From positions 204,538,001 through 204,602,000 of the forward strand of contig OZ024743.1 in assembly GCA_964016885.1 (NCBI GenBank): a stretch of 64,000 bases of DNA, in the 5' to 3' direction. Made by a program: the position numbers and the translations under genes. Below the pieces are notes generated by a model. That model was not told where the DNA came from and made no database searches. It saw nothing but the letters and a program-made list of their open reading frames with translations. Origin of the DNA: Eledone cirrhosa. Lineage: Eukaryota. Positions 1-56,600 of this stretch are shown piece by piece (positions within the stretch are counted from its first letter, which is position 1; the number at the start of each line of letters is the position of its first letter).

Positions 1-1850
1 TTCAGCTATGAGTGCGAGGTCATCAGCATACAGGAGTTCCCATGGGCATCCGGTCTTAAACTCCTCCGTTATTGCCTGCAGGACTATGATGAACAGGAGA
101 GGGCTAAGAACAGAGCCCTGGTGGACCCCAACCTGTACGCTAAATTCCTCGCTATACTCATTGCTAATCCTAACTTTGCTGACTGCTCCCCTATACATGG
201 CTTGTACCGCTTTCACAAGCCATTCATCTACTCCTAGTTTTCTAAGAGCCCACCAGATTACTGCACGTGGAACTCTGTCAAAGGCTTTCTCAAGGTCGAC
301 AAATGCCAAGTAGAGTGGCTTACTTTTAGCTAGGTACTTTTCCTGTAATTGCCTCACAAGGAAGAGCGCATCAGTGGTGCCTTTCCCTGGAACAAACCCA
401 AATTGCATCTCGTCTATATTCACCCGGTCCCTAATCAGCTGTGCTATAACTCTTTCTGTTACTTTCATGACCTGGTCCATCAACTTTATACCTCTATAGT
501 TTCCTCTATCTAGTGCATCGCCTTTAGCTTTGTAGCAGTTGACAATGATGCTACTGCACCAATCTTTTGGTATGGCCCCCTCTAGTATTACCTGGTTAAC
601 GATACGTGTGGTTATAGTGTGACCTACAGACCCAGATGCCTTCAGCATCTCGGCAGCTATACCCGATGGACCGGTTGCCTTCCCTATCTTCATATCTCTG
701 ATTGCCTTACTTACTACGCTGCCGCTGACTTGTACTGCTGGTCCCTCTATAGGGTCTACGTGGGGTAGGGTCTCTTCTTCCCATGCATTCTCCTCATTTA
801 GTAATCTATCATAATGACTCTTCCATGCATCTTTCTTCTCAGCACTTGTGAGGGCAAGCTCACCTTTATCATTCCGGATACACTTCTCTCCAATGACATC
901 ACAACTATCTCTGACACACTGCCTCGCAATCTTGAATACCTCCTGTTTCTGGTCCTCACGTTGTAAAACATGCTTGAATTTTCTATCCTCTGCTTCCCTC
1001 CTAGCTAAGTATACTTGTCGCCTAGCTTCCCTCTTGGTCTCTATGTAATGTACCCTGCTCCCCCCGTTCTTCCATTCTTTCCATGCCTGTCTCTTGGCCT
1101 TGACTGCTTCATCTACCTTATTGTTCCACCACCAAGTCACTCTCCTCCTGCTTGAGGTCTTACTCCAGCCACAAACCTCATCCGTCGCCTCTAGTAAGTT
1201 ATTTTTTAGGAACTCCCAGTTCTCTTCTACGTTAAATGTCTCTATCTGTTCTTCTTTACTGTCGTAGGCGTTGAGTAAAATATCTTTAAATCTGTTACTG
1301 GTTGAGGGGACTTTCAGCTTCCAGATCTTTCTTCTCCAGGTTGGCCTCTGTTTCAGGGCTCGTCTAGTTCTGACCGTGAGGTCGCTGACAACTAAGCTAT
1401 GTTGGGATGTACATTCCTCACTAGGGAAGGCTTTTGTGTTTACGACCGTCCATCTGTCACGTCCTCTGATGAGGATAAAATCTAACTGACTAGAGTGCTC
1501 CCCTGATCTATAGGTGATCAGGTGGTTGTCGGGTTTTTTAAAGTTTGTGTTACATATCGACATGTCATTGGCGTCGCAGAATTCTAGAAGTCTGAATCCT
1601 TCCTCATTCCTTGTGCCAACTCCATGGCCTCCATGTACTCTATTGAAGCCGTCGCAGTGTTTACCTACGTGTCCGTTAAAATCTCCTGCAATGATTAGGA
1701 AGTCCTTGACGTCTGTTAGAGCAGTAGTGTGTATTAGGGACTCGTAAAACCTATCCTTAAGTTCGTCTGGCAGCCCCGATTGGGGTGCGTAAGCTGATAT
1801 TATTGTGGTAATTGTCTTATTCAGGACTAGTCTGAGTTTAATGATTCTTG
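1..1850 (-). mobile_element. RTE-clade LINE (APE endonuclease end + RT), left-arm copy, runs off the window edge
   Basis: Reverse complement of 53617..55466, which encodes [33 protein letters not shown] and LLYADD. Confidence 0.93.
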
Positions 1851-2026
1851 ATATATGTATATATATATGTGTATATATATATATGTATATATATATATTA
1901 TATATGTATATATAAATATATATATATATGTATATGTATATATATATATATATATATATATATATATATATATATATATATATATATATATATATATATA
2001 TATATATATATATATATATATATATA

Positions 2027-53473: not shown

Positions 53474-53616
53474 ATATATATATATATATATATATATATA
53501 TATATATATATATATATATATATATATATACATATACATATATATATATATATATATATACATATATAATATATATATATACATATATATATATACACAT
53601 ATATATATACATATAT

Positions 53617-56600
53617 CAAGAATCATTAAACTCAGACTAGTCCTGAATAAGACAATTACCACAATAATATCAGCTTACGCACCCCAATCGGGGCTGCCAG
53701 ACGAACTTAAGGATAGGTTTTACGAGTCCCTAATACACACTACTGCTCTAACAGACGTCAAGGACTTCCTAATCATTGCAGGAGATTTTAACGGACACGT
53801 AGGTAAACACTGCGACGGCTTCAATAGAGTACATGGAGGCCATGGAGTTGGCACAAGGAATGAGGAAGGATTCAGACTTCTAGAATTCTGCGACGCCAAT
53901 GACATGTCGATATGTAACACAAACTTTAAAAAACCCGACAACCACCTGATCACCTATAGATCAGGGGAGCACTCTAGTCAGTTAGATTTTATCCTCATCA
54001 GAGGACGTGACAGATGGACGGTCGTAAACACAAAAGCCTTCCCTAGTGAGGAATGTACATCCCAACATAGCTTAGTTGTCAGCGACCTCACGGTCAGAAC
54101 TAGACGAGCCCTGAAACAGAGGCCAACCTGGAGAAGAAAGATCTGGAAGCTGAAAGTCCCCTCAACCAGTAACAGATTTAAAGATATTTTACTCAACGCC
54201 TACGACAGTAAAGAAGAACAGATAGAGACATTTAACGTAGAAGAGAACTGGGAGTTCCTAAAAAATAACTTACTAGAGGCGACGGATGAGGTTTGTGGCT
54301 GGAGTAAGACCTCAAGCAGGAGGAGAGTGACTTGGTGGTGGAACAATAAGGTAGATGAAGCAGTCAAGGCCAAGAGACAGGCATGGAAAGAATGGAAGAA
54401 CGGGGGGAGCAGGGTACATTACATAGAGACCAAGAGGGAAGCTAGGCGACAAGTATACTTAGCTAGGAGGGAAGCAGAGGATAGAAAATTCAAGCATGTT
54501 TTACAACGTGAGGACCAGAAACAGGAGGTATTCAAGATTGCGAGGCAGTGTGTCAGAGATAGTTGTGATGTCATTGGAGAGAAGTGTATCCGGAATGATA
54601 AAGGTGAGCTTGCCCTCACAAGTGCTGAGAAGAAAGATGCATGGAAGAGTCATTATGATAGATTACTAAATGAGGAGAATGCATGGGAAGAAGAGACCCT
54701 ACCCCAGGTAGACCCTATAGAGGGACCAGCAGTACAAGTCAGCGGCAGCGTAGTAAGTAAGGCAATCAGAGATATGAAGATGGGGAAGGCAACCGGTCCA
54801 TCGGGTATAGCTGCCGAGATGCTGAAGGCATCTGGGTCTGTAGGTCACACTATAACCACACGTATCGTTAACCAGGTAATACTAGAAGGGTCCATACCAA
54901 AAGATTGGTGCAGTAGCATCATTGTCAACTGCTACAAAGGTAAAGGCGATGCACTAGATAGAGGAAACTATAGAGGTATAAAGTTGATGGACCAGGTCAT
55001 GAAAGTAACAGAAAGAGTTATAGCACAGCTGATTAGGGACCGGGTGAATATAGACGAGATGCAATTTGGGTTTGTACCAGGGAGAGGCACCACTGATGCC
55101 CTCTTCCTTGTGAGGCAATTACAGGAAAAGTACCTAGCTAAAAGTAAGCCACTCTACTTGGCATTTGTCGACCTTGAGAAAGCCTTTGACAGAGTTCCAC
55201 GTGCAGTAATCTGGTGGGCTCTTAGAAAACTAGGAGTAGATGAATGGCTTGTGAAAGCGGTACAAGCCATGTATAGGGGAGCAGTCAGCAAAGTTAGGAT
55301 TAGCAATGAGTATAGCGAGGAATTTAGCGTACAGGTTGGGGTCCACCAGGGCTCTGTTCTTAGCCCTCTCCTGTTCATCATAGTCCTGCAGGCAATAACG
55401 GAGGAGTTTAAGACCGGATGCCCATGGGAACTCCTGTATGCTGATGACCTCGCACTCATAGCTGAATCTATGGTAGAACTAGAGAATAAATTCCAAACCT
55501 GGAAGCACTGACTAGAGAGAAAGGGCCTTAAAGTCAACATGACAAAGACTAAGGTCCTTGTAAGTAGACGAGAAAACAGAACCCAGATCCCCTCAGGGAA
55601 ATGGCCTTGCTCAGTATGTAGGAAAGGTGTAGGTAGGAACTCCATTCTCTGCCCCAAATGCAAACAATGGGTACACAAGAGATGTAGCGGGATCTCAGGA
55701 AGCTTAATTAAGAATGTAGGATTCACATGCAGCAGCTGTGCTGAAACAGCAAGCAAACAGCCACAGGAAACAAGTACCACCAATCTCTGGGAGGGCCCTG
55801 TAGAAACAGTAGACAGCTTCTGCTACCTAGGTGACCGAATTAGCAACGGAGGTGGGTGCTCAGAAAGTACAATAACTAGGGTAAGAACGGGATGGAAGAA
55901 GTTTAGGGAACTACTACCACTGCTAGCTGCAAAAGGCTTCTCCCTCAGAATGAAAGGCAGACTGTATGATGCGTGTATCCGAACAGCGATGTTGCATGGT
56001 AGTGAGACCTGGGCGCTGAAGGTGGAAGACTTACGTAGATTAGAGAGAAACGAAGCCTGCATGCTCCGATGGATGTGTAACAGTAATATACGTGAACGAC
56101 AAAGCATAAAGGAATTGAGAGAGAGACTGAGCATAAGAGGAATCAAATGCTGCGTGCAGGAGAGGCGGTTACGCTGGTATGGACATGTGATGCGTATGAA
56201 GGATGACAGCTGCATAAAAAGGTGCAGAGCACTAGAAGTTGATGGAAACCGCGGAGTGGGGAGACCCAAGATGACTTGGGATGAGGTGATAAAAGCCGAC
56301 CTTACCCAACTACACCTCTCAAAGACAATGACACACGACCGTGACTTCTGGCGTCACGCAGTAATACAGGGTACCCGACCTCCCATGGGTGCATGCTGAA
56401 GCATATAAACAATATGCCCCCACTCCCCCCACCGCAAGGTGGTCGTGGAGGTGCCACGGCAAAAAAGCACCCAGCCCACACTGTAAAGTGGACGTGTAGG
56501 CGCCACGAAAAAGCACCCAGCACTCACTGTAAATGAGGTTGGTGTTAGGAAGGGCATGCAGCTGTAGAAATCAAGCCAGATCAGTTCCTGTATGAGCAAG

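Follow-up and report, generated by a model that had tools for sequence, protein, structure and literature searches.

A palindrome of at least 55 kb around a 5'-inverted Penelope-like element in the Eledone cirrhosa assembly: foldback duplication or assembly fold?

Introduction

Little is known about how large palindromes originate, except in mutant yeast and in tumours, and a locus of Eledone cirrhosa raises the question of whether a retroelement can be the trigger of one. In a 64,000-nucleotide stretch of the assembly GCA_964016885.1 (contig OZ024743.1, positions 204,538,001 to 204,602,000 of the forward strand; hereafter, the window), a mirror repeat of at least 55 kb is centred on a Penelope-like element (PLE) whose 3' part is repeated in inverted orientation on its 5' side. 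This arrangement, put forward in the original prediction from the sequence alone, is present in the assembly: it was recovered by self-BLAST of the window, which contains no N bases. The presence of the palindrome in the assembly is thus confirmed, and the PLE with its junction is explained; between a real duplication and a fold made during assembly, the balance is close to even. The explanation favoured here, held tentatively and at slightly below an even chance, is that one flank underwent a real foldback duplication, seeded by the two 1.1-kb inverted ends of the PLE after the insertion of the element. All positions below are those of the window, and statements about published systems refer to the accessible parts of the cited sources.

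Geometry of the Palindrome

The mirror repeat, in which 1-29675 faces 30732-55466 around a spacer of 1056 bp, is gap-free: N bases number 0 in 64,000, and the axis contains no assembly gap. Self-BLAST resolved it into three mirrored blocks, i.e., 1-21556 with 55466-33941 (99.27% identity), 20506-25040 with 38008-33456 (99.19% identity) and 26890-29675 with 33433-30732. The mirrored portion comprises ~24.8 kb of the 29.7-kb left arm, and two left-only blocks make up the difference. The mirror runs past the (TA)n tract next to the element and up to the window edge at position 1, its outer end lying beyond the window, so the size of the palindrome is a lower bound. Of the earlier claim that ~25-29 kb of flank is mirrored to the edge, the extent stands, since the mirror does reach position 1, but the mirroring is imperfect, as the right arm is devoid of the two left blocks. 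Beyond the palindrome, 55467-64000 has non-simple 25-mers in common with 1-55466 only at 60133-60158 (26 words).

The Axis Element and Its Inversion Junction

The minus-strand open reading frame (ORF) 29345-30748, encoding 467 aa, represents the 3' part of a Penelope-like reverse transcriptase (RT)-endonuclease (EN) and belongs to a PLE family designated here as B. At 30732, it abuts the 3' part of the same ORF in inverted orientation. The palindrome is centred on an inverted repeat that existed beforehand, the loop of which forms the spacer: a 1131-bp pair of pseudo-long terminal repeats (pLTRs) around 1056 bp.

Relatives of family B were compared over 28546-30760 in 4 of 24 public runs, represented by contigs or by 150-nt restriction-site-associated DNA (RAD) reads; the results refer to the 40 of 269 letter rows and the 24 of 375 loose ends that were listed. 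The best share of window words in a public run was 0.58, and 14 of the 24 runs did not exceed 0.06. Three contigs of relatives (two in X17 and one in X18) depart from the window behind 30737; therefore, the microhomology at the junction is 6 nt long, with a chance probability of ~0.002. The microhomology anticipated in the original prediction is thus present, its length being 6 nt (30732-30737) and not 5. The sequence of the relatives past 30737 extends the RT frame in agreement with family A, another PLE family of the arms. Two further opposite-strand joints were detected in family B (28849/30566 in X22 and 28778/28851 in X23, 3 reads each), which suggests that the 5' inversion recurs in this family. 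The axis junction does not figure among the rows listed, which carries no information on its presence in the runs, since a contig of the junction alone would align collinearly with the window.

An internal control for the ordinary 5' inversion of PLEs is provided by a third family, C, located in the arms. Its inverted copy (6487-6778 vs. 8929-9247) stops with the element, as previously asserted, and has different flanks. Over 235 bp, the family-C inverted pair holds 3 internal differences and one more at the TA edge; a tail of ~35-40 bp is present at one end only, and such tails, of 30-40 bp, are often found at one PLE end only (PMC8557442). Under every explanation considered, the inversion junction of the axis element is a biological PLE product.

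Family B is very abundant, with more than 1,400 records in each of the four runs, though depth does not equal copy number. Loose ends on TA repeats at 28684 occurred in its relatives in 4 of 4 runs. Contig depth was highest over the hammerhead region 28684-28850, and many records stopped on (TA)n at 28684; together, these observations suggest that short derivatives of family B are abundant. The RAD loose-end clusters at 28579, 28638-28641, 28729 and 28794 were considered as element ends and rejected, all of them falling on AATT sites (assigned by eye, one of the sites being that of the family allele). Position 28579 was rejected along with them as a tail boundary.

Divergence of the Arms

Substitutions between the arms number 19 in 24,790 aligned bp (0.077%). 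Eight of these cluster at 367-760, so that the remainder amounts to 11 in ~24,030 bp (0.046%). Excluded from the count were the mismatches at microsatellite edges (1915, 8309, 8585, 8587, 24563, 25028-25037, 26895 and 26897) and the differences between family-A paralogues; two of the counted substitutions (15150 and 16843) lie at homopolymer edges. In addition, about 14 dinucleotide tracts vary in length between the arms, always by an even number of bases (2-88 bp), and two C runs show a one-base difference. At a larger scale, a further family-A unit (3003 bp, open frame) occurs in the left arm but not in the right. The right-arm family A consists of the body of unit 1 and a pLTR matching the last left pLTR, with two right-private changes and one left-private change. 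Because the body of unit 1 is joined there to a pLTR of the last-left type, the right arm has most likely lost a family-A unit by direct-repeat recombination. Private substitutions were found in each arm, left and right, and the arms derive from two different templates. Arm-specific sites include 2905, 16041, 17086 and 24669.

The longest interval between counted substitutions spans 12,245 bp (P=0.005 if the cluster at 367-760 is left out). Such low and patchy divergence is as expected from arm-to-arm conversion, a process named, at the multi-kilobase scale, in the title of PMC3723533. Two tracts deserve description in their own right. The cluster in the long interspersed nuclear element (LINE), 367-760 vs. 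55100-54707, concentrates 8 substitutions in 394 bp, with none in 1-366 or 761-1900; this bounded tract perhaps reflects an allele of old age, mis-correction or conversion by a different copy, and its 3:5 split between synonymous and nonsynonymous changes is uninformative. The other tract, 17090-20800 vs. its mirror, extends for 3.7 kb without substitutions up to the place where the family-A unit was lost, and is flanked on either side by denser differences, which fits out-of-register conversion or unequal crossover.

Relative Age of the pLTR Pair and the Spacer

The inverted pLTRs differ from each other at 2 of 1131 sites. At one of them, 28702, the right-arm base is that of all aligned contig depth; at the other, 28728, most of the depth shows a third base, and the right-arm base does not occur among the rows listed. 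The spacer differs from the deepest matching contigs at 3 of 367 covered sites (conditional P=0.02), and from all aligned contig depth at 8 of 1056 sites, i.e., ~0.8% (conditional P=0.002; among the rows listed). If the changes in the spacer postdate the insertion, about 17-18 differences would be expected between the pLTRs, against the two observed. At least one rare base (28938) is common to both pLTRs, and their 3' ends are identical to the base, unlike those of family C. These comparisons point to the right pLTR as a later copy of the left one. Since the two pLTRs resemble each other much more closely than the spacer resembles its relatives, copying after insertion is favoured over bridging at insertion. 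Of the two mechanisms originally proposed, a later foldback seeded by the inverted pLTRs thus fits better than the attachment of both element ends to the same-side flank during insertion.

Origin of the Palindrome

The favoured scenario starts from an observed structure, i.e., a PLE in a (TA)n nest standing head-to-head with an inverted copy of its own 3' part via the 6-nt microhomology. A break or a stalled fork past the second pLTR would expose single-stranded DNA; the pLTRs could then anneal around the 1056-bp loop, and synthesis would copy the first pLTR together with the flank. The product would be stabilised by a second junction outside the window, formed by a template switch back, telomere capture or breakage-fusion. 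Subsequently, point changes and microsatellite slippage would make the arms diverge, accompanied, in an order that we infer, by a retrozyme insertion on the left, the loss of a family-A unit on the right and, probably, patchy arm-to-arm conversion. A real foldback is favoured because the fold coincides with a biologically formed microhomology junction (P ~0.002), and because the axis is without a gap, false heterotype duplications being mostly gap-separated (PMC9516828).

Several points weigh against this scenario. There is no evidence here for both arms on a single molecule, and a right arm taken from the other haplotype would account just as well for the arm differences, for their patchiness and for the copied right pLTR. 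A foldback produces a dicentric or acentric intermediate; a second event is then required, and none is seen in the window. The spacer is intact, although palindromes with short spacers are unstable (PMC8327919). The largest-gap test on the 12,245-bp stretch was picked after the data were seen. As to the timing, the runs used hold 0.55-0.58 of the window words and may come from another population or species, and the 0.8% distance of the spacer may have been inherited from the source element, in which case the timing argument fails. Most differences of the pLTR frame from the family majority are synonymous, i.e., they reflect subfamily structure, and the eight sites of the spacer (5 nonsynonymous to 3 synonymous) are too few to separate decay from the source lineage.

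A nearly equal contender, also named in the original prediction as a refuting case and likewise set at slightly below an even chance, is an assembly fold in which one haplotype was joined to the other through the inverted pLTR. Both homologues would then have the order flank-L, pLTR, spacer, inverted pLTR, flank-R. Reads would drop out past the second pLTR, a read ending there would be joined to one from the reverse strand of the other haplotype that ends in the first pLTR, and the assembly would walk back along that haplotype. The differences between the arms are indeed allele-like (presence or absence of an element, tandem copy number, about 14 even microsatellite shifts and scattered substitutions), and both left- and right-private variants are present, which aged paralogues would give as well. 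No better overlap with the reverse strand is offered by the locus than the inverted pLTR, and the sequence accuracy is high (six identical 310-bp units), as where assemblies keep haplotypes apart. PLE tandem and inverted structures are said to cause assembly problems (PMC8557442); heterotype duplications form the main class of false duplications (PMC9516828), and palindromes are routinely checked for them (also PMC12448946), e.g., in a tunicate assembly, where they were found supported (PMC12448946). The palindrome resembles false heterotype duplications in its near-identical copies, allele-like differences and location in one sequence, but here there is no gap between the copies, with 0 N in the 64,000 bases of the window, and the divergence is low: the arms are less than 0.08% apart vs. 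the raised heterozygosity that false duplications tend to have (PMC9516828), a contrast that depends on the host's own level. The fold would also require a dropout beside the pLTR together with a join on at most ~1.1 kb in a very abundant repeat, whereas the long TA-rich tracts at 59450-62100 were assembled through.

Bridging at the time of insertion is improbable. The endonuclease would cut (TA)n, two same-side ends of sister chromatids or homologues would prime cDNAs, and these would be joined head-to-head by microhomology. Both 3' ends do point outward on (TA)n, a join of cDNAs with microhomology agrees with the junction, and L1 does likewise in tumours and cell models (PMC7058536, PMC11702581). 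Moreover, if the 0.8% was inherited from the source element, the pLTR pair (2/1131) and the arms (0.05-0.16% locally) are about equal in age. The deficit of pLTR differences tells against bridging if the spacer changes postdate the insertion, unless conversion erased them, and ordinary 5' inversions are common enough (family C; the two joints of family B) for the junction to demand no special event. Least credible, with a very small probability, is a single chimeric foldback read, arising in the library, in amplification or as a nanopore artefact, which produced both arms. Inverted repeats can favour template switching. Such reads account for ~0.55-0.6% of Oxford Nanopore genomic DNA reads, but are virtually absent from the HiFi data tested (PMC12870357). 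The fold lies on the PLE junction rather than at a random point, and the arms differ by 1.9-kb and 3-kb blocks situated 3-9 kb from the axis as well as by arm-private substitutions. Two templates are therefore indicated, and the single foldback read, named in the original prediction as a refuting case, is excluded by the 19 substitutions and the two kilobase-scale blocks; a chimeric bridge of very short length would amount to the assembly fold described above. The later foldback seeded by the inverted pLTRs is retained, with the reservations above, as the preferred explanation.

Comparison with Known Systems

The element at the axis has much in common with the PLEs described by Craig et al. 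2021 (PMC8557442), i.e., partial tandems with pLTRs, an inverted 5'-truncated copy, (TA)n targets and hammerhead cores, those here being predicted. In those PLEs, as in family C, the inversion stops with the element, whereas here the mirror continues for at least 24.7 kb. In yeast, spaced inverted repeats are established as primers of foldbacks (PMC10164571, PMC10622511), and the yeast foldbacks share with this locus a spaced inverted repeat at the centre, a loop retained as the spacer and the mirroring of one flank. At the same time, the yeast cases were engineered or induced in mutants and involved Alu or short natural repeats, whereas here an animal genome is concerned, the pLTR pair of the element itself serves as the repeat, the arms are aged and the second junction is outside the view.

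Fold-back inversions associated with L1 (PMC7058536, PMC11702581) likewise contain reverse-transcribed sequence in the fold, in one case two inverted reverse-transcribed sequences. They are somatic or come from cell lines, form at insertion, reach the megabase scale and show copy-number steps; here, the element is a PLE, the event presumably took place in the germline, and a fold later than the insertion is what the evidence leans to. Mammalian sex-chromosome palindromes resemble the locus in having arms longer than 8 kb, more than 99% identity and, possibly, a short spacer, the arms of those on the human X spanning 8-140 kb with spacers from 77 bp (PMC8327919). They are mostly gene-bearing and poorer in transposons than their flanks (PMC8327919), whereas the arms here are retroelement-rich in their recognised ORFs: only retroelement ORFs were recognised among the frames of at least 150 codons (6 of them scanned against Pfam), no gene prediction having been run. 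No case of a PLE-centred palindrome or foldback was found among the records listed from the literature searched, judged by title and opening of the abstract, most subscription papers being outside its coverage.

PLE Families, Hammerhead-Bearing Elements and Other Features of the Window

The coordinates of the features are collected in Table 1. A CxCX5C linker was found by motif scan at aa 638 of family A and aa 327 of family B, followed by an EN core of the VY..YIG type; the call of a C-terminal GIY-YIG-like EN after the RT in both families rests on motifs, and Pfam returned no family for 4 of the 6 frames scanned, including those of families A and B. The N-terminal motifs RWK (aa 55) and DKT (aa 137) are present in family A, and the truncated family B is without that region. 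The EN core carries a single Cys in A and B vs. CxxC in family C, and there is no CCHH in A or B; a downstream CxxC occurs in both, and CxH occurs in B and is absent from unit 2 of A. The two families are 67% identical across 807 nt, and both terminate on (TA)n. The motifs in common with the Hydra clade (PMC8557442) are RWK, DKT and CxCX5C in A, and CxCX5C, CxxC and CxH in B. By these motif criteria, families A and B are assigned to the Hydra-clade PLEs; membership in Naiad was rejected, the EN being C-terminal. The frame at 21665-24001 (+) in family A is an unbroken Hydra-type frame of 778 codons, and the neighbouring unit differs from it at 3 body sites, one of which is a stop. Family A is a candidate for a recently active family.

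The left-only array of 310-bp units contains a hammerhead core in 6 of 6 units. The z-score of the 101-nt fold is -4.36, and the core-constrained 52-nt fold reaches only -4.3 kcal/mol. The array sits in (TA)n, and the right arm shows a short non-TA interruption at the same place. Non-coding tandem units, each with a predicted type I hammerhead, agree with the definition of a non-LTR retrozyme (bioRxiv 10.64898/2026.07.22.740005); judged by its sequence, the array looks like a very young insertion of this kind. The other hammerhead-bearing element, at 27640-28437, is a partial tandem of 1.5 units with (TA)n inside the unit, mirrored at 31984-32669.

The hammerhead cores of the pLTRs give three-stem folds with a long stem II if the core is kept unpaired. 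In family A (24395-24520, +) and family B (28740-28851, -), the cores are split by a stem II of ~85 nt. For family B, the core-constrained fold has -26.3 kcal/mol vs. -26.6 kcal/mol for the free one, and the unconstrained z-score of -0.09 is not significant. Rfam at its gathering score gave 0 matches in the whole 64-kb window; because of their unusually long stem II, the predicted pLTR hammerheads are missed by Rfam and by motif searches with short spacers. More cores were observed at 11735-11765 (-), 43758-43788 (+), 59443-59474 (+) and 60371-60399 (-), the last being similar to the core of the 310-bp unit.

The left arm also holds foldback or MITE-like (miniature inverted-repeat transposable element) self-inverted stretches of 118-684 bp at 10859-11542, 15484-15649, 15689-15806 and 16789-17443. 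A short repeat near 15960 presumably resembles an octopod short interspersed nuclear element, and no claim made here depends on this resemblance. The frame 53337-56399 (+) is LINE ORF2-like (Pfam Exo_endo_phos_2 and RVT_1) with an in-frame stop at 55509-55511, and it is inside this frame that the mirror runs off the window.

Table 1. Coordinates of the palindrome, its axis element and associated features in the window.
Feature	Position	Strand	Remarks
Left arm	1-29675		Open at window edge; mostly retroelements and microsatellites, some unique-looking DNA, e.g., 9480-11620
Right arm	30732-55466		Reverse complement of left arm minus two blocks
Spacer, 1056 bp	29676-30731	-	RT4 to thumb/linker part of 5'-truncated family-B PLE ORF
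Family-B Hydra-type PLE	28545-30737	-	5'-truncated at RT4 MGS motif; 3' end on (TA)n
Inverted pLTR copy (EN domain and 3' untranslated region)	30732-31862	+	Compared with 28545-29675, differs only at mirrors of 28702 and 28728
Microhomology at inversion junction, 6 nt	30732-30737		From contigs of family-B relatives in X17 and X18
(TA)n target of family-B insertion	28435-28544		Right-arm counterpart 31863-31984, 12 bp longer
Predicted type I hammerhead with long stem II, family-B pLTR	28740-28851	-	Mirror copy in right pLTR
Partial tandem of ~555-bp non-coding unit	27640-28437	+	Hammerhead core at 28074; in both arms
Array of 6 identical 310-bp units, left only	25018-26900	-	Minimal type I hammerhead core per unit (retrozyme-like)
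Family-A Hydra-type PLE partial tandem, left arm	17489-24559	+	pLTR, unit 1 (in-frame stop) and unit 2 (open 778-codon frame)
Family-A tandem, right arm	33941-38008	-	Single unit; putative recombinant of unit 1's body with last pLTR
Family-C PLE	6487-9247	+	Pfam GIY-YIG; CX2-5CxxC linker; short 5' inversion; mirrored in right arm
Eight arm-to-arm substitutions	367-760		Within RTE-like LINE; 3 synonymous, 5 not

Significance

Should the palindrome turn out to be an artefact, it would name a gap-free type of misjoin, i.e., a haplotype fold via inverted pLTRs, for which curators of invertebrate assemblies could screen. If it is real, the known mechanism of inverted-repeat foldback would gain a new natural trigger in a germline genome: a retroelement making its own spaced inverted repeat would be a concrete natural cause of palindromes. 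It is possible, though on balance doubtful, that the pLTR pairs of 5'-inverted PLEs are built-in foldback substrates and a recurring source of heritable giant palindromes in PLE-rich animal genomes. The locus described here would then be one such case to which a date can be put, marked by conversion between the arms and by subsequent retrozyme traffic, and palindrome centres in PLE-rich genomes would be predicted to be enriched for 5'-inverted PLEs.

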